A stretch of 6,539 nt of DNA from a virus. Taxonomy: Duplodnaviria > Heunggongvirae > Uroviricota > Caudoviricetes. This document shows, one piece after another, positions 1-6,539 of the stretch (position 1 is its first letter; each line of letters begins with the position of its first letter). The stretch covers positions 1 to 6,539 of the IMG/VR virus record IMGVR_UViG_2690316002_000006, one strand, 5' to 3'. The position numbers and the translations under genes were made by a program. The notes beneath the pieces were generated by a model. That model did no database searches and was not told the DNA's origin. It worked only from the letters and a program-made list of their open reading frames with translations.

Positions 1-245
1 TTGATATGGCGAACACCGGTCTGCGCATCGTAGGAGCCAAACAGGGCCGCCACCAGGTCAAACACCCACGGTGCACAGGACTCCCCGAATGTCGGGCTAC
101 CCGGTGCATCCACAATCCGCAGTTGTTTAAAAATCGCCAGTGCATGTGCAGCCTGGTCCGGATAAATCGGAGCCGGAATAATCGACAGCCCCTTTTTCAG
201 GCGCTCTGCCCAGTCCGGACATGCCGTGCTCCATACAGGTATCAT
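1..245 (-). CDS. Phage terminase large subunit, N-terminal part (gene continues past the window start)
   Basis: Minus-strand frame open from ATG at 245 to the window edge; translation MIPVWSTACPDWAERLKKGLSIIPAPIYPDQAAHALAIFKQLRIVDAPGSPTFGESCAPWVFDLVAALFG... looks like a terminase large-subunit N-terminus. ATG overlaps the upstream stop as ATGA (245..242) and a GAGGAA Shine-Dalgarno sits 5 nt upstream. Missing from the ORF track only because it has no stop inside the window. Confidence 0.75.
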   Translation of the reverse strand, partial: MIPVWSTACPDWAERLKKGLSIIPAPIYPDQAAHALAIFKQLRIVDAPGSPTFGESCAPWVFDLVAALFGSYDAQTGVRHI

Positions 246-805
246 CCGCTTTCCTCATTCTGGTTATTCACCACCAGTCGGGGAGGTGGTGGCACCGCAA
301 AACGGTTAGCCGCTTTTTTCGCGGCATCACCTTTTGCCGATTTTTTACCGGCATCGCCTTTTTTATGGTGTGTGAACTGCGCCAGTCGCCAGGCCGCATC
401 CAGTGCCAGTTTCGGGTCAATTATCAGGTTTTCCACCAGGATCTGCCCCATAGCTTTCACCGGATCGGGAAGACCATCCTCCATATATTCAATACCATGA
501 GATATCACCGCGGGCGGAGGCATCTCCGGATTTTTTTCGTCCGGCTGTGGTATTGCAGCCACCTCACGGCGACGGGGTTTATCCTCCTGCTCTGATTTTT
601 TCTGCCGGTAAACAGGAACCTCATCCACCTCCACCGTTTCGCACTGTTTACGGGCTATAAACGCGAGCACCTCCGGATCTTTTGCCAGCTGCGAGCCTTT
701 AACCCTGGCGGTCTTCGCCGAATAACCGGCGGCAATGGCTGACGCTGTTTTGTTTTTCCCGGACATGAGCGCCAGCGCAAATTTTCGTTTTTGCGTTGTC
801 AGCAC
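242..805 (-). CDS. Phage terminase small subunit (Terminase_2-like)
   Basis: 187-aa ORF; N-terminus LTTQKRKFALALMSGKNKTASAIAAGYSAKTARVKGSQLAKDPEVLAFI matches the LT.KQ..F......N.T.AAI.AGYS.KTA pattern of Terminase_2 small subunits. GTG start at 805 follows GGGAGGAGG; lies immediately upstream of the large subunit. Confidence 0.85.
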   Translation of the reverse strand: MLTTQKRKFALALMSGKNKTASAIAAGYSAKTARVKGSQLAKDPEVLAFIARKQCETVEVDEVPVYRQKKSEQEDKPRRREVAAIPQPDEKNPEMPPPAVISHGIEYMEDGLPDPVKAMGQILVENLIIDPKLALDAAWRLAQFTHHKKGDAGKKSAKGDAAKKAANRFAVPPPPRLVVNNQNEESG

Positions 806-1094
806 AGCCTCCTCCCGGGTCCATAACGCACTCAGCCGGGTATGGTTCAGCCCATTTTTCCCGGCGTCTCATGCCGCAAATGTTAACTGCTGCCTGGTTA
901 ACATTTGCTGAAAAAGCCAGTTAACATTTTTTTCGCACAACAAACTGAATAATAAAGATAAAAACCGAAAAAATGCCCGGGCAGCCAGTTAACATGTTAA
1001 CTGGCCTGAAACAGGAATTTTTTCTCTGCATGAGACGGGGGGCGGTGTCCGGAGCGATCGTTTTTTACGCCGAATGATACCCCCCCCGGTCGGG
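806..1094. other. Putative cos region: cosB-like terminase-binding repeats, an A-tract bend and a GC-rich candidate cosN between the HNH gene and the small terminase gene
   Basis: 289-bp non-coding gap in the position cos occupies in HK97-like phages (HNH gene - cos - terS). Repeat / A-tract / repeat layout parallels lambda cosB (R3-I1-R2-R1). G-run 1037..1042 and C-run 1080..1087 flank a roughly 40-bp core. Inference only. Confidence 0.4.
876..1005. repeat. Cluster of five GTTAACAT / ATGTTAAC octamers, including a perfect 22-bp palindrome (984..1005) and a 12-bp inverted pair (876..887 / 897..908)
   Basis: Read directly: GTTAACAT at 897, 920, 988 and its reverse complement at 880, 994; GCCAGTTAACATGTTAACTGGC is its own reverse complement; GCAAATGTTAAC and GTTAACATTTGC are reverse complements 9 bp apart. 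An A-tract block (about 941..975) separates the sub-clusters. Confidence 0.8.
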
Positions 1095-1460
1095 TTACAG
1101 TCCGATGATGTCGTCCGCTCTGCCACTACCTCCGGACACCTCCGGCAGCGTCGGGTCCGGCATACCACCCGCCGCTTCACGAGCAGACTTTTGTCGATGG
1201 CATTCGGTACAGAGCGTCCAGAGATTCGTCTCCTCATTACCACCACCGAACTGAAGTGCAATTCGGTGATCGAGTTCACTATCACAGAGGTCAACCACAC
1301 GACCACAGAGACAGCACTGCCCGGCATCCCTCAGCCAGATATGACGCTTGAGGGAAACCCGGGCACTGCCACTGACACGACGCTGTTCCCCCTTCAGAAT
1401 ATTCACCCGTCGGGTATTCAGTGTTTTGATTCTGCTCTGGAGTGTACGAAGCTCAGCCAT
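1095..1460 (-). CDS. HNH endonuclease (phage packaging-associated)
   Basis: 121-aa ORF with an HNH-type motif: CCLCGRVVD...ELDHRIALQFGGGNEETNLWTLCTECHRQK (Cys pairs flanking a His-containing core). ATG start at 1460; sits directly upstream of the cos-like region and terminase genes. Confidence 0.85.
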   Translation of the reverse strand: MAELRTLQSRIKTLNTRRVNILKGEQRRVSGSARVSLKRHIWLRDAGQCCLCGRVVDLCDSELDHRIALQFGGGNEETNLWTLCTECHRQKSAREAAGGMPDPTLPEVSGGSGRADDIIGL

Positions 1461-1501
1461 GTAAAATCCCCGTCATATAACTTGTCACCAGAGGAAAGAA
1501 A

Positions 1502-1687
1502 ATGTCATCGAAAAACCGGACCCGCAGAACCACAACCCGCAATATCCGTTTCCCCAATCACATGATTGAACAGATCAACATCGCCCTTGAGCATAAAGGG
1601 TCCGGTAACTTTTCAGCGTGGGTTATTGAAGCCTGCAGAAGAAGGCTGTCAACAGAGCGTTCGGGTATGAATTACATAATTAAGTAA
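1502..1687 (+). CDS. Small ribbon-helix-helix-like protein (resembles YlcI/YnfO-type small prophage proteins)
   Basis: 61-aa ORF with a strong Shine-Dalgarno (GAGGAAAG, 5 nt before ATG). Basic N-terminus followed by NIRFPNHMIEQINIALEHKG...FSAWVIEACRRRL, consistent with a strand-helix-helix DNA-binding fold. The only convincing plus-strand gene in the window. Family name is from memory. Confidence 0.65.
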   Translation: MSSKNRTRRTTTRNIRFPNHMIEQINIALEHKGSGNFSAWVIEACRRRLSTERSGMNYIIK

Positions 1688-1816
1688 CATGGTGTTCACA
1701 GAACACACAGTTACCGGACACATCAGTTTTCCATTCGTCCCCCGGCAGTACAGGCTTCCCGTCTGACGGGATAGCCTGAAAAAACACAGAAAATTATTTG
1801 TTATAATTAATATAAC

Positions 1817-1957
1817 TTACTCAAAAAAAAGCGACGAGAAAATCAGCATCAACGAGCAATAAGCGCCAATACGTGATAACAAATGGCAGCCATATTTATC
1901 TGCAGTATAAGCAATGGACAGGATAACCACACCAGAAACCGTCAGCATAAAATCCAT
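1817..1957 (-). CDS. Candidate 46-aa hydrophobic micro-protein (below the ORF-track size cut-off)
   Basis: Manual translation: MDFMLTVSGVVILSIAYTADKYGCHLLSRIGAYCSLMLIFSSLFFE, with two hydrophobic segments. ATG at 1957 preceded by GGGGAAG 5 nt upstream. Lies in an AT-rich stretch; could be a chance ORF. Confidence 0.25.
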   Translation of the reverse strand: MDFMLTVSGVVILSIAYTADKYGCHLLSRIGAYCSLMLIFSSLFFE

Positions 1958-2313
1958 TTGAACTTCCCCGGACAAAATCGACTCATCTAAAGATTTACAG
2001 CTCTTTTTATTATCAATATGTTAAAAGTAAAATAAACAGATGTTCAATAATACGAATACAAAAACGTGCTGAAAATCAATGAATCCATTTCTGTGTTATC
2101 AATTAATAGTGATAAACATCCGGCTTCTTCCACCATCGCACCGGACCAGCGACCATGAGGGGACAACGCCGCGCTCCGTTAACGCGGTAAACCCCGGTGT
2201 GTATCGTTTTTGATTATCCCCGCACACTCGCGCAGAGGATTCTCCCGGTCGGGCTGCGGTCTCTGTTAATGCAGGAATACGGCGACAATACCGCGCATGA
2301 ATAATAAGGTCGC

Positions 2314-2538
2314 TCAACACACTGGCTGTAATGCAGCGGATACCATGCGGCATTTAGCGGCATTCATCGTACACTCAACGGTTAGCTCTTCATTCGTGGC
2401 ATTCACCTGAAAGGTCCTGGAGTGTAATTGCGTACATTTACCACTGAACGAACCTTCAACAAGAACACGACCACGCTGCAAAATACGGAACGGAATTGTT
2501 CCCTGAAAAGGCTTTACGGTTACCAATAATTTCTTCAT
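2314..2538 (-). CDS. Hypothetical 74-aa protein with four cysteines, immediately downstream of Rz
   Basis: ATG at 2538 preceded by GGAGA with 4-nt spacing, only 24 bp after the Rz stop. Translation MKKLLVTVKPFQGTIPFRILQRGRVLVEGSFSGKCTQLHSRTFQVNATNEELTVECTMNAAKCRMVSAALQPVC. The ORF-track version (2314..2556) starts at an upstream TTG; the ATG is preferred. No family recognised. Confidence 0.55.
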   Translation of the reverse strand: MKKLLVTVKPFQGTIPFRILQRGRVLVEGSFSGKCTQLHSRTFQVNATNEELTVECTMNAAKCRMVSAALQPVC

Positions 2539-2561
2539 GCATTCTCCGAATAACAAAAATA

Positions 2562-3020
2562 CTAGTTAATACACTGAGTGCGGATATATTCCTGAAGCAT
2601 TCTCAATGCTGCCTGGTCGCTGATGATTCCGTCTCTGATACCGAGAACGTTTCGTCCAGCAACCGGAGAGAGTTCGACGGCGGCATCATTGCCCACGCCG
2701 GAGGTGCCGGTGGCTTCACGCACGGTACCGGGGCAGGTGGCGTTGATCCGCAGGCGCTTACGACCAGCGGCAACATCAGCACGCAGAGTTTCATTTTCAG
2801 CTCTCGCATCGGCTAATTCCCTCGAGTATTTTGCATCGAGCGCAGCAACATCGCGCTGGCGCACCTGCATATCAGTAATGGTTGCGTTTGCCAGCTCCAG
2901 CTCTCTGGCTTTTTTATCGCGCTGCGCTTTGTAGGTGATGACGTTATCGCGGTAATGATTCAGCCCCAGACTAAGCGCACCACAGACCACCAGCAGAATA
3001 ACGGTAAACGCGGAAAGCAT
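2562..3020 (-). CDS. Rz: i-spanin Rz
   Basis: From internal ATG at 3020: MLSAFTVILLVVCGALSLGLNHYRDNVITYKAQRDKKARELELANATITDMQVRQRDVAALDAKY... closely parallels lambda Rz (N-terminal TM anchor, NHYRDN.ITYKAQRDK, MQ.RQRDVAALDAKY, C-terminal QCI/R). The ORF-track start at TTG 3128 adds 36 implausible residues. Confidence 0.85.
   Translation of the reverse strand: MLSAFTVILLVVCGALSLGLNHYRDNVITYKAQRDKKARELELANATITDMQVRQRDVAALDAKYSRELADARAENETLRADVAAGRKRLRINATCPGTVREATGTSGVGNDAAVELSPVAGRNVLGIRDGIISDQAALRMLQEYIRTQCIN
2603..2809 (-). CDS. Rz1: o-spanin Rz1, a lipoprotein embedded in the +1 frame of Rz
   Basis: MRELKMKLCVLMLPLVVSAC followed by a proline-rich stretch (GSTPPAPVPCVKPPAPPAWAMMPP): lipobox V-S-A-C and Pro-rich periplasmic domain as in lambda Rz1 (MLKLKMMLCVMMLPLVVVGC...). 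Lies entirely inside Rz. The true start could be the second Met (2794). Confidence 0.8.
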   Translation of the reverse strand: MRELKMKLCVLMLPLVVSACGSTPPAPVPCVKPPAPPAWAMMPPSNSLRLLDETFSVSETESSATRQH

Positions 3021-3257
3021 TCGGTTTATGCTCACCCCACCAGCCCTGCCGAAGTCAACGCCATCCAGGTTATGGAAAGAAAAAGAACAACCAGCATTAG
3101 TGAAAATGAAATACCGACGATTACACAAAGGCCCTTCGCCAGCATTATGAGTTTGTCTGACATCTTTACCCCTTAATAGCAGTAATTAACCGGGCAACCA
3201 CCCATAAAAACGGAATCAGCCAGACCAGCAAAAATTTCCAGTCCGTTTTTATCATCT

Positions 3258-3953
3258 TCATGCTGCGGTAGCTCTCCATGCAGCAAGCAGACCAGCAATC
3301 CACTGAACACCTTTTGGGGTGAATTTAACCTGCGTAAAAGCATGACCATTGCCCGCCTCGCCCGTTTTCACGCTAAACCGCCCCGCATCCAGGTGATGCG
3401 AGTAAGGCGTCATTTTTCCAGCGAGGCGATACATTATTCCGTTCTCCAACAAAAACAGCCGGAAATCGGTTTCTTTGATACCGAGTAACTTAGCAACTTC
3501 CCGGAATCCCATCAGACCAGATGCTTCAACATAGTTATCAACAAATTCAGCCTTCGGCGCTGCTATTGCCAGTTGATTTTCCAGCACTGCTTTCTGTTCA
3601 GCCAGTTTTGCCGCAAATCGCAACGCCTCAGGTAAAGTCCGGGGGATCTGAATACCATGCATCGCTTTGAGTCTTGCCAGCACAGAACGACGAACGGCCT
3701 TTGACTCCCTCATGCCAACGAGCATCATCTGGTCAAAATCCAGATCATAGTATGCCGTTCTTGTCTGGTTATTGTTTAACCGGAATTTTTTTCCGGTTCC
3801 ATCAAGCTCTAGCTCATCCTCAATTTTTGCAAGAAACTTACGCGGTTCATGAGGGACTTCTCCGGCTTCTGCCCGGGCTGGATTAATAATGTTATTCAGA
3901 AAATCCAGACTACTCATGGATATTTCATGATCGATAGAAATCATCTCTTTCAT
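3258..3953 (-). CDS. Antirepressor-like protein with a C-terminal KilAC-type domain
   Basis: 231-aa ORF, ATG at 3953 with AAGGAA Shine-Dalgarno. C-terminal region FREVAKLLGIKETDFRLFLLENGIMYRLAGKMTPYSHHLDAGRFSVKTGEAGNGHAFTQVKFTPKGVQWIAGLL matches the KilAC signature. N-terminal domain not confidently assigned. Confidence 0.65.
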   Translation of the reverse strand: MKEMISIDHEISMSSLDFLNNIINPARAEAGEVPHEPRKFLAKIEDELELDGTGKKFRLNNNQTRTAYYDLDFDQMMLVGMRESKAVRRSVLARLKAMHGIQIPRTLPEALRFAAKLAEQKAVLENQLAIAAPKAEFVDNYVEASGLMGFREVAKLLGIKETDFRLFLLENGIMYRLAGKMTPYSHHLDAGRFSVKTGEAGNGHAFTQVKFTPKGVQWIAGLLAAWRATAA

Positions 3954-4085
3954 GGTTGATTCCTTTTAGTGATGAACCCTGCGCACAGGAATAACCAGCC
4001 CAAAGAGGGTTAACCAGACCACTGCCGGTTATCCACCAGGGCTCATCCTGAAAGGTTCTTTGGTTTATTTACGCTTGTGCGAAGC

Positions 4086-4117
4086 ACAGAAATGACAAAG
4101 GCACCATTACGGTGCCT
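4086..4117 (-). terminator. Candidate intrinsic terminator downstream of the endolysin gene
   Basis: Minus-strand RNA: AGGCACC-GUAAU-GGUGCCU (7-bp stem, 5-nt loop; plus 4099..4117) followed by UUUGUCAUUUCUG. About 110 nt after the endolysin stop. Confidence 0.4.
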
Positions 4118-4226
4118 CTGCGTGAAATAATCTGCCTAACTTTATTCACTTACATTTTGCCAGTTCGCAGGATTTCGTGTTATCCGCCCGCGCTGGCCAA
4201 CGTCATTTTTCAGCAAAATATTCTGC

Positions 4227-4760
4227 TTATCTGTCGATTCCCCAGCACGCCAGAGCGCTCTCCTGGTCACGACGGGATACCTGACCATAACAGTTATTTG
4301 AGCGAATACGGCAGTCTCTGCCACCGTCCTTAATCCACCAGCGAATCGCTTCGCAGGCACCTTTTCGATCTCCTGCATTAATTCGTTTATAAAACGTCGA
4401 CGGGAAACACTTACCTGGGCCAATGTTGTAAGGACAGAATGACGCAATACCCGCTTTCTGGGGTTCAGTCAGTGGCACTTTGATGTTTTTCGCCACCCAT
4501 GCCAGCGCCTTATCACGCTCAATGGCGTTAACCCGGTCGCATTTTTCCTTCGACAACTTCATGCCCGGAACGACAGGTTTACCATCCACCAGGATGGCAC
4601 CGCGGCAGATGGTCCAGATACCCGCGCCATCACGGTATGCCGTGGTGTGGTTACCTTCCTTTTCATCCAGAAACTGGTCGAGGATTTCAGGCGCAGGCGC
4701 ACCTGCGGCAATCAGCGCCAGAACGGCAGCCGACAGGCCGTATTTGATTTTGGTGTTCAT
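4227..4760 (-). CDS. SAR endolysin (T4-lysozyme-type muramidase with signal-anchor-release N-terminus)
   Basis: 177 aa; N-terminal Gly/Ala-rich weakly hydrophobic segment YGLSAAVLALIAAGAPAP; catalytic spacing E35-x8-D44-x5-T50 (EGNHTTAYRDGAGIWT) as in T4 lysozyme and phage 21 R. Strongly resembles E. coli prophage lysozymes such as RrrQ (from memory). Confidence 0.85.
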   Translation of the reverse strand: MNTKIKYGLSAAVLALIAAGAPAPEILDQFLDEKEGNHTTAYRDGAGIWTICRGAILVDGKPVVPGMKLSKEKCDRVNAIERDKALAWVAKNIKVPLTEPQKAGIASFCPYNIGPGKCFPSTFYKRINAGDRKGACEAIRWWIKDGGRDCRIRSNNCYGQVSRRDQESALACWGIDR

Positions 4761-4810
4761 GGATATTTATCAGGGTTTATCGATTTCAAATCCCTGGATA
4801 TGTTAAGTCT

Positions 4811-5155
4811 TCAGGCCAGCGGTGGAGTCTTCAGAGAACCAGTAATTATTCCCGGTAGTTTTCCTCTGTAGGTTATCAACACATCCTGCGCCTCTAAAAT
4901 GATGGGCCGCTTTTCCGGCAACGGACCATCCCCTTCACATAACCCGGCAGCAACATCCATGAAAAACTGCTTCGCCTGCTTTTTCGCCTCCGCTTCGTAA
5001 AACTCCAGCGTGGCACCTTCAGTACGGTCAAGACTAATCGCCACATTTGGCAACAACAGTGACGGATACCCACCAATTTCCAGTGCCACAGTAACAGTAA
5101 TCTTATCCGGGTAATTATTTATCCCTTTAACAACCAGTTCGTATTTTTTCTTCAT
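4811..5155 (-). CDS. Hypothetical 114-aa protein inserted between holin and endolysin
   Basis: ATG at 5155 lies 4 nt after the holin stop, with GGGGAGAG Shine-Dalgarno inside the holin 3' end. Soluble-looking, no signal peptide or TM segment. Same position as ydfR in the K-12 Qin prophage (from memory); function unknown. Confidence 0.6.
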   Translation of the reverse strand: MKKKYELVVKGINNYPDKITVTVALEIGGYPSLLLPNVAISLDRTEGATLEFYEAEAKKQAKQFFMDVAAGLCEGDGPLPEKRPIILEAQDVLITYRGKLPGIITGSLKTPPLA

Positions 5156-5159
5156 CGCT

Positions 5160-5366
5160 TTACTCTCCCCGCGCCGCCTTACGCTTATCTTCTTTAATCT
5201 TGAAATAAAGGTTAGTCAGATACGTCAGCAGGCCAAACAGCAGACTCCCCAGCACACCGATTGCCACCCACTGGGACGGAGAGACTTTGTCCAGCAGCTG
5301 CAGTAACCAGTATCCCGTCCCCACCGCTGACGTGGTGTATGACACACCCGTTGTGATTTTTTCCAT
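5160..5366 (-). CDS. Phage-21-type pinholin (class II holin)
   Basis: From ATG at 5366: [68 protein letters not shown], near-collinear with S21/EssQ (two TM segments, charged C-terminus ...KAARGE). The ORF-track version (to 5435, GTG start) adds 23 residues of doubtful reality. Confidence 0.8.
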
Positions 5367-5621
5367 CTGATGTATGTCTCCGTCACCGCCGACAGAAAAT
5401 GAAAGTAAAGGAAAACAAAAAGCCGCCAGTGTCACCCACTGACGGCCAACTCCGGGAGCCGTGATTATGGCATTCAGGCTCTGCTAAAAATGCCAGATAA
5501 CATTCCGACCAACCCCTGATTCAGGTTATAAATGACACAATATCTTGACAACATCCGTCACTGTCTGTCAGAAAATGTACTGCCAAATATAAGTATCATG
5601 TGAAGTACATCTACCCGTTTT

Positions 5622-5660
5622 AGCCAGCGTCCTTCAGAGTGGGCGCTGGCTTTTTTTATT
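5622..5660 (+). terminator. Plus-strand intrinsic terminator abutting the 3' end of the upstream minus-strand gene
   Basis: AGCCAGCGUCC (5622..5632) - 8-nt loop - GGGCGCUGGCU (5641..5651), an 11-bp stem with one G-U pair, followed by TTTTTT(A)TT on the plus strand. On the minus strand the hairpin is followed by AAAACGGG, so it is not a minus-strand terminator. Confidence 0.5.
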
Positions 5661-6195
5661 ATGCTGCCGGTGCATTTATCTCCAGCATCAGACTTTCTAT
5701 CTCAACGCCATACGCTGCATTTTTTGTAACATCCGTCAGCGTCAGCGCATTCAGTCCCAGTGTCAGACTGTCTTTTATAACCTGGAATGCCGGGCCAGCC
5801 ACTCCATTCAGTTTCGGAGTAACCGTGGCACTGCCGGCGGTGAACACCAGCTCCAGCGTCTGCCAGTCGTTACCGTAATCGCCGAACTCCCCCAGCTTCG
5901 TGTTTCCGGCTTTCCTGTGATGCATCAGATTCACTCTGCCGTCAGTGGTCTGAGTGAAGTACGACATCAGGAACGGATTACCGGTACCCGTCATCGCCAC
6001 ACCATCAGGAACGGGAGCATCCGTATACAGATAAATCCCCAGCCCGAACTGATTGTTGGTCAGTGCGCCTGACAGGCGGAACTTACAGGTCAGTCTGCCG
6101 CCCTGTGTCAGCAGGGTAATTGCGTCATCCACCGGATGCGTCAGGGACCAGGTTTTATTGCTCTGCTTGGTGATCTTAAATACACCATCTGACAA
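5659..6195 (-). CDS. 3' part of a cargo ORF upstream of the lysis cassette (possibly lectin-like; hypothetical)
   Basis: Protein-like translation (...GWSIKDGGIQLSDGVFKITKQSNKTWSLTHPVDD...GVEIESLMLEINAPAA) in a frame that stays open upstream to a stop at 6250..6252 with no ATG or GTG in between; the ORF-track start is a TTG. Probably the C-terminal portion of a larger, frame-interrupted gene. Confidence 0.5.
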   Translation of the reverse strand: MSDGVFKITKQSNKTWSLTHPVDDAITLLTQGGRLTCKFRLSGALTNNQFGLGIYLYTDAPVPDGVAMTGTGNPFLMSYFTQTTDGRVNLMHHRKAGNTKLGEFGDYGNDWQTLELVFTAGSATVTPKLNGVAGPAFQVIKDSLTLGLNALTLTDVTKNAAYGVEIESLMLEINAPAA

Positions 6196-6539
6196 CTGAA
6201 TTCCGCCATCCTTAATGCTCCAGCCCTGCGCAGCAGAATTTCCGGTGCCTTACCACTGATGAAGGCTGAGGTGCGCCCGGCTGCGTTCAGAATAGCGGTT
6301 GCCAGACGATCCGGAATAATGCTCCTGCGCGCCCATGAACTGAAATGTGTCGGGCGGTTTGATGATACCTGGTTTCCATTCGTTCTCGATGCCGCACCGT
6401 AATATCCTGATGCCGGAATATCCGGATCTTCTGCCGGCGCGTTAGTGGCGGTATTGACGCCGTTACCGTCTGTCATGAAGGGCACAAAATAAACGCCCTC
6501 ACTCTCCCTGTTTTTATACCCGCCGTACACGGTGTCGTA
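6141..6539 (-). CDS. Upstream portion of the same cargo gene, in a different frame (open to the window edge)
   Basis: Frame open from the window edge: DTVYGGYKNRESEGVYFVPFMTDGNGVNTATNAPAEDPDIPASGYYGAASRTNGNQV...AILNAAGRTSAFISGK... The last roughly 30 codons (R-rich, overlapping the downstream frame) look non-native, consistent with a frame switch near 6250. Confidence 0.4.
   Translation of the reverse strand, partial: YDTVYGGYKNRESEGVYFVPFMTDGNGVNTATNAPAEDPDIPASGYYGAASRTNGNQVSSNRPTHFSSWARRSIIPDRLATAILNAAGRTSAFISGKAPEILLRRAGALRMAEFSCQMVYLRSPSRAIKPGP

Follow-up and report, generated by a model that had tools for sequence, protein, structure and literature searches.

The reading-frame break at the end of the window, by which we mean the whole 6,539-nt stretch analysed, almost certainly lies in a prophage nanS-p gene encoding a NanS-p-type 9-O-acetyl-sialate (9-O-acetyl-N-acetylneuraminate) esterase. 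With the same near-certainty, the break is real in the sequence as given and is caused there by an 88-nt deletion in the inter-domain linker of the gene. This degree of confidence extends to what the gene is and to the presence of an 88-nt lesion in the given sequence. That a nanS-p copy with the 88-nt linker deletion is really present in the organism, with a truncated product of 426 aa, we regard as probable, a judgement on the whole statement that includes the reality of the deletion. Judged from its sequence, the gene is a known one (nanS-p, allele WP_024247920.1) at a known position with an ordinary disrupting lesion. Since an otherwise identical E. coli prophage has the gene intact, we consider the window copy an ordinary broken or mis-recorded one.

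We re-read the two minus-strand frames from the sequence and the list of open reading frames (ORFs). Frame 1 is open from the window edge at 6539 to TGA 6143..6141. Frame 2, which is −1 relative to frame 1 and overlaps it by about 110 nt (6249..6141), is closed on its 5′ side by TAA 6252..6250 and has its stop at 5661..5659 at the 3′ end; its first start-like codon is TTG 6195..6193, and the ORF that begins there is 178 aa long. The coordinates given for both frames in a preliminary description of this DNA were all correct: the nonsense that it had noticed in frame 1 before the stop at 6141 is a 31-residue out-of-frame tail followed by the TGA, and frame 2 does have the stop 6252..6250 upstream and TTG 6195 as its earliest start-like codon. 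We take both frames to be genuine coding sequence rather than chance ORFs, because 6237..6539 and 5659..6236 each match an intact 1,851-nt gene with 100% nucleotide identity. The locus is composed as follows, L001, L002 (NZ_CP038389.1) and L019 (E. coli draft GCA_012252535.1) being relatives used for comparison.

6237..6539, minus strand: in-frame part of nanS-p, codons 295–395 of 616, with 100% nucleotide identity to nt 883–1185 of the intact genes of L001 and L019.
6236..6237, minus strand: deletion junction, reading ...GGAAATT/CTGCTGCG... on the sense strand (alignment to L001 and L002; exact comparison with L019).
6141..6236, minus strand: out-of-frame tail of 31 codons, LLRRAGALRMAEFSCQMVYLRSPSRAIKPGP, and TGA 6143..6141 (sequence and ORF list).
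5659..6236, minus strand: 3′ part of nanS-p, read in the frame of the intact gene (Pfam DUF6645, PDB 6YP6 and 100% identity to L019).

The in-frame part comprises the end of the NanS-like SGNH/SASA domain and the first linker residues, ending ...AFISGKAPEI, and the gene extends past the window edge. The out-of-frame tail that forms the final 31 codons of frame 1 is not peculiar to the window; a homology search found the same or a near-identical tail terminating other −1-phase frameshift alleles (P0001, P0002 and others). The 3′ part consists of the last 2 bases of codon 425, followed by codons 426–616 and the stop.

A three-way alignment with L001 and L002 located the lesion. Between 6237 and 6236, 88 nt of the intact 616-aa gene are absent from the window, which is otherwise identical to that gene; the missing bases are gene nt 1186–1273, that is, codons 396–424 and the first base of codon 425, which make up the linker KPSPGGNTPSGPSADTSVRTISLLPAAGE. 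The deletion (residues 396–425) thus sits between the two structured domains, represented by PDB entries 3PT5 (residues 59–379) and 6YP6 (residues 421–613). The comparison with L019, which we found through the lysozyme variant of the window, gave the same result over a longer distance: window 1–6539 aligned with positions 775–7401 of its contig AASBBJ010000005.1 (233 kb; reverse complement) with 0 mismatches in 6,539 nt, and L019 has 88 extra bases at 3437..3524. The nanS-p gene of L019 is intact, and its protein is exactly WP_024247920.1. The best complete RefSeq genome reached only 97.4% identity over the whole window, and relatives differ from one another in mosaic fashion across the late region, the divergent blocks lying at about 1000–1500, 2500–2750, 4250–4500 and 5000–5250.

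These alignments change the lesion originally proposed. The preliminary description had placed a single-base indel near 6250..6256, a candidate ruled out by the alignments to intact genes, which give the 88-nt deletion at 6237/6236 instead. The fused peptide suggested with it, '...AFISG/GTGNSAAQGW...', was wrong as well: the intact protein reads ...AFISGKAPEIKPSPGGNTPSGPSADTSVRTISLLPAAGEAAAQGWSIKDGG..., and 'GTGNS' is an out-of-frame reading of codons whose true product is KAPEI. Two routes to the deletion were also rejected. The breakpoints at 6237/6236 share no base, which leaves no microhomology for an origin by microhomology or strand slippage, and a nearby imperfect repeat, GCA(G)CCGGA, would not produce the observed junction. 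Nor was a hairpin-mediated deletion favoured, the linker region of the intact allele, folded with DNA parameters, being no more stable than shuffled sequences (z = −0.5).

A nanS-p-like esterase upstream of the holin had been suggested by position only, and domains, structures and annotated homologues now support it from the sequence itself. A 1,140-nt query over the region matched 1,519 complete E. coli genome records. The best matches, annotated 'SASA family carbohydrate esterase', always aligned in two pieces, whose span in the record, 1,228 nt, exceeds that in the window by 88 nt. In phage records the gene is named 'yjhS: 9-O-acetyl-N-acetylneuraminic acid deacetylase' in Stx1a phages, YYZ-2008, 434 and 2B8, and in E. 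coli O157:H16 98-3133 an intact 616-aa homologue (WP_024247920.1) is flanked by tRNA genes and a class II holin. The intact protein matched Pfam DUF1737 at residues 3–50, SASA at 66–262 (E = 1e-12) and DUF6645 at 467–577; against PDB it matched 3PT5 (NanS/YjhS) over residues 59–379 (E = 1e-121) and 6YP6 ('NanS-p' C-terminal domain) over residues 421–613 (E = 1e-29).

The window itself contains the last ~85 residues of the SGNH/SASA catalytic domain (codons 295–379), 100% identical to the intact gene. It also encodes the C-terminal jelly roll (DUF6645; 6YP6), which frame 5662..6249 matches in Pfam with E = 6e-19, out of frame with the esterase. DUF1737 would lie 5′ of the window edge and is present in the L019 and L001 genes. 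The three domains do not form one uninterrupted ORF here, owing to the 88-nt deletion and the stop 6143..6141 that follows it. By sequence, then, the window gene is a member of the nanS-p family and, as written, a disrupted allele. The homologues are intact, with a single ORF of 616–621 aa at this position in all close prophage relatives, and none of the relatives examined has a two-frame arrangement at the same boundary.

The closest known systems are the NanS-p proteins of E. coli: L0105/z1466/933Wp42 of 933W, vb_24B_21/gp84 of phi24B and WP_024247920.1. The gene for WP_024247920.1 is equal to the window at every shared position; L001 encodes an identical protein from a gene that differs by one silent base, outside the window. 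The intact allele shares with the family a three-domain architecture (DUF1737, NanS-like SGNH/SASA domain, linker, DUF6645 jelly roll) and a location upstream of a class II holin and downstream of Q and tRNA genes, whereas the window copy, minus 88 nt of linker and frameshifted, could not encode the full-length enzyme. NanS-p of Stx phages is 636–657 aa long (PMC10462455), compared with 616 aa for the allele here, which has a shorter linker. Many prophages encode NanS-p proteins; these are active Neu5,9Ac2 esterases, an EHEC genome has several copies of them, and they sustain growth on sialic acids derived from mucin. Neu5,9Ac2 esterase activity has been established for the EDL933 and O104:H4 alleles (PMC8065619). 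Their C-terminal domain is a lectin-like jelly roll and a predicted carbohydrate-binding module, according to a passage in PMC10462455 that cites Franke et al. 2020. For phi24B, a 2026 preprint (bioRxiv 10.64898/2026.04.10.717836) reports that the homologue gp84 decorates the capsid, to which DUF1737 anchors it, and that proteolysis cuts it at its linkers. Through NanS-p, 9-O-acetylated mucin sialic acids become available to E. coli, enterohaemorrhagic strains among them. A strain usually has several copies, damaged ones are common, and the biological weight of this one is small.

Chromosomal NanS (YjhS, 3PT5) has a homologous SGNH/SASA domain but neither the N-terminal DUF1737 nor the C-terminal DUF6645, and is not prophage-borne. 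This comparison bears on what the broken allele would make. The deletion would remove the linker and shift the frame and, if codons 1–294, beyond the window, are intact as in the otherwise identical relative L019, the predicted product is 426 aa long. It would consist of residues 1–395, with the capsid-binding DUF1737 and the complete catalytic domain, and 31 nonsense residues; the lectin-like DUF6645 C-terminal domain would no longer be translated with the esterase. Because chromosomal NanS is functional without a C-terminal lectin domain, the truncated product might still be catalytically active. We infer that it might keep esterase activity but lose carbohydrate targeting. Were the deletion real, the allele would be a natural DUF1737–esterase construct, useful for testing the contribution of the carbohydrate-binding domain.

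The surroundings of the gene are those of a lambdoid late region. Downstream of nanS-p the window carries genes for holin, YdfR, lysozyme, ant, Rz/Rz1 and terS, and upstream of it L019 has NinG, NinH, Q and tRNA-Met(CAT)/Arg/Arg. Two features lie next to the 3′ end of nanS-p.

5160..5366, minus strand: class II holin of 68 aa, the first lysis-cassette gene downstream of nanS-p (ORF list; homologous position in relatives).
5622..5651, no strand assigned: terminator-like G+C-rich hairpin of 11 bp with A-run and T-run flanks (consensus scan only).

The holin fixes the position of nanS-p in the prophage late region; in close relatives a 68-aa class II holin, annotated or called, occupies the homologous position. 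No stx operon lies between Q and nanS-p in L019, the closest relative. Of the Stx-type prophage setting envisaged in the preliminary description, the Stx-phage-like layout with nanS-p upstream of the holin holds, but the closest relative is without stx. We read the window as part of a lambdoid prophage with a Stx-phage-like layout, not as a demonstrated Stx prophage.

Several further details of this region were recorded. The hairpin at 5622..5651 begins 8 nt past the nanS-p stop, between nanS-p and the holin, and resembles a bidirectional terminator; another terminator-like hairpin is located at 5447–5421 (minus strand), immediately before the holin gene. An antirepressor (ANT/KilAC) of 231 aa at 3258–3953 (minus strand) lies within the lysis cassette, between lysozyme (4227–4760) and Rz/Rz1, an arrangement common to all close relatives. 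Rz and Rz1 form an embedded pair at 2562–3020 and 2603–2809 (both minus strand), with the ORF of the 68-aa Rz1 lipoprotein (MRELKMKLCVLMLPLVVSAC...) inside Rz in another frame. In the identical L019 the gene caller gave Rz1 only and no Rz. The Rz/Rz1 stretch is also where the window departs most from the best complete-genome match, with 64 mismatches in 2500–2750.

Aside from the gap, the window agrees at every base of its 6.5 kb with a prophage whose gene is intact. We therefore take the deletion for either a mutation of very recent date, which we prefer and hold to be probable, or a record error, which we consider possible but unlikely. As a record error, the 88-nt gap would be an artefact of sequencing, assembly, cloning or record handling, and the true gene would be intact and equal to WP_024247920.1. 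Such an artefact would fit with the public contig that has an intact gene and is otherwise 100% identical to the window, and with the absence of the junction from every public collection searched. Exact scans for the junction 23-mer CACCGGAAATTCTGCTGCGCAGG found it in none of the GTDB representative genomes, IMG/VR or JGI metagenomes, and among 5,426 complete E. coli genomes a 100-nt junction query had no single-piece match. Exact look-ups of five reconstructions of the 426-aa product and of four partial forms found nothing in a collection of 15 billion proteins, and a homology search with the 132-aa frameshifted fragment returned other frameshift alleles only, none with the junction. An isolated 88-nt gap without microhomology is also expected from a record error or edit, and E. 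coli genomes that match the 1,140-nt query do so at a median of 3 places and at as many as 11; such repetition is known to cause problems in assembly.

The same breakpoints, however, argue against repeat collapse by an assembler, as they have no bases in common, and a graph shortcut is not obvious either: with a de Bruijn graph assembler, a junction without shared bases is impossible unless reads span it. Long-read errors are typically short homopolymer indels rather than clean 88-nt gaps. Genuine lesions of many kinds are frequent in nanS-p; decay of the gene is common, with many unrelated lesions in other contigs, and we counted this in favour of a real deletion.

A third reading accepts the sequence but makes the split functional, with a truncated DUF1737–esterase and a separately initiated DUF6645 protein translated from TTG 6195 or from a coupled GTG 6132. 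We consider it very improbable. The upstream stop 6143..6141 lies 52 nt past TTG 6195 and 8 nt before the in-frame GTG 6132, a weak GGCGGA motif stands 6 nt ahead of the TTG, and in phi24B the C-terminal domain is parted from the esterase post-translationally anyway (bioRxiv 10.64898/2026.04.10.717836). Gene callers have also called the 178-aa ORF on 23 contigs. The contigs examined, however, reach the split via different, unrelated lesions, and the 88-nt junction occurred in 0 of the 15 that were inspected; we therefore rejected a conserved two-gene arrangement. In the intact gene, the TTG is an ordinary codon within an ordinary coding stretch (KDGGIQL), and the separate C-terminal protein is putative. 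Moreover, the jelly roll of 6YP6 begins at about residue 421 and the TTG is residue 439, so a product started there would be without the first ~18 residues of the crystallised domain.

Programmed −1 ribosomal frameshifting, which would join the two frames, has scarcely any probability at all. The −1 phase of frame 2 and the overlap with frame 1 are what such a mechanism would use, but in hundreds of intact homologues one frame covers the bases in question, and the two-frame state is made by a deletion unique to this sequence. No slippery heptamer (X XXY YYZ) occurs in 6260..6135, no Rfam element matched, and no conserved two-frame arrangement was found, the homologues being single ORFs; the fold of the linker is unremarkable by the z-score given above, obtained with DNA parameters on the intact allele. 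Recoding was rejected because the overlap has no slippery site and the homologues are single ORFs. Of the three origins offered in the preliminary description, a recent pseudogene and a sequencing or assembly error thus remain, and recoding, with neither heptamer nor Rfam element nor any homologue with the same boundary, does not. For annotation, ORFs 5659..6195 and 6141..6539 are to be treated as one disrupted nanS-p, not as two genes or a recoding site, and the lesion is to be recorded as an 88-nt linker deletion.

Other disrupted nanS-p copies have several lesions in or beside the same linker, none of which is the 88-nt deletion. The O55:H7 DEC5B pseudogene E3156_RS10390 ('frameshifted') likewise consists of two ORFs, one for DUF1737+SASA and the 178-aa one for DUF6645 that the window also has. 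Elsewhere we found single nucleotides deleted at gene nt 1135, 1144, 1272 and 1278, nonsense codons at 436 and 438, an 8-nt insertion and a 665-nt deletion. The GC-rich linker contains the short direct repeats CTGCTGC and CCGGCAG and the palindrome CTGCCGGCAG, and may be slippage-prone. Rearrangements between short direct repeats were located as follows.

L002 (NZ_CP038389.1), 3260–5132: linker rearrangement between short direct repeats.
L009, 6559–6729: linker rearrangement between short direct repeats.
L032 and L035: linker rearrangements between short direct repeats.

We also observed a 22-nt tandem duplication, CTGCTGCCGGCAGCCGGAGAGG, in the linker of two O55:H7-type assemblies, a 7-nt duplication of CCGGCAG in the linker of one Logan contig and, in GCA_001283345.2, the loss of ~15 nt between a pair of CTGCTGC repeats, where the junction contains an N. 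It is conceivable, though improbable, that the linker is a recurrent mutational hot spot that uncouples the lectin-like domain, with active short esterases or separate domains being selected rather than dead genes left behind. Linker-proximal lesions do occur in several unrelated genomes, but in a sample biased by its queries, which were the downstream ORF and the frameshifted tail; we rate the idea low because this sampling favours linker lesions.

Two other copies deserve mention. In L012 (GCA_046575985.1), nine separate single-base indels are spread along nanS-p at 8694–10537, a distribution that suggests errors of a low-accuracy long-read assembly and not a biological cause; it is therefore possible that some nanS-p genes annotated as 'frameshifted' in public genomes are artefacts. 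In L026 (GCA_900479285.1), a called ORF of 173 aa at 3715–4236 matches both holin (PF04971) and DUF6645. Its neighbours are an intact nanS-p on one side and a second holin gene on the other; window 5653–6049 matches the locus twice, and the ORF looks like a partial duplication or recombination joint of a nanS-p 3′ end and a holin.
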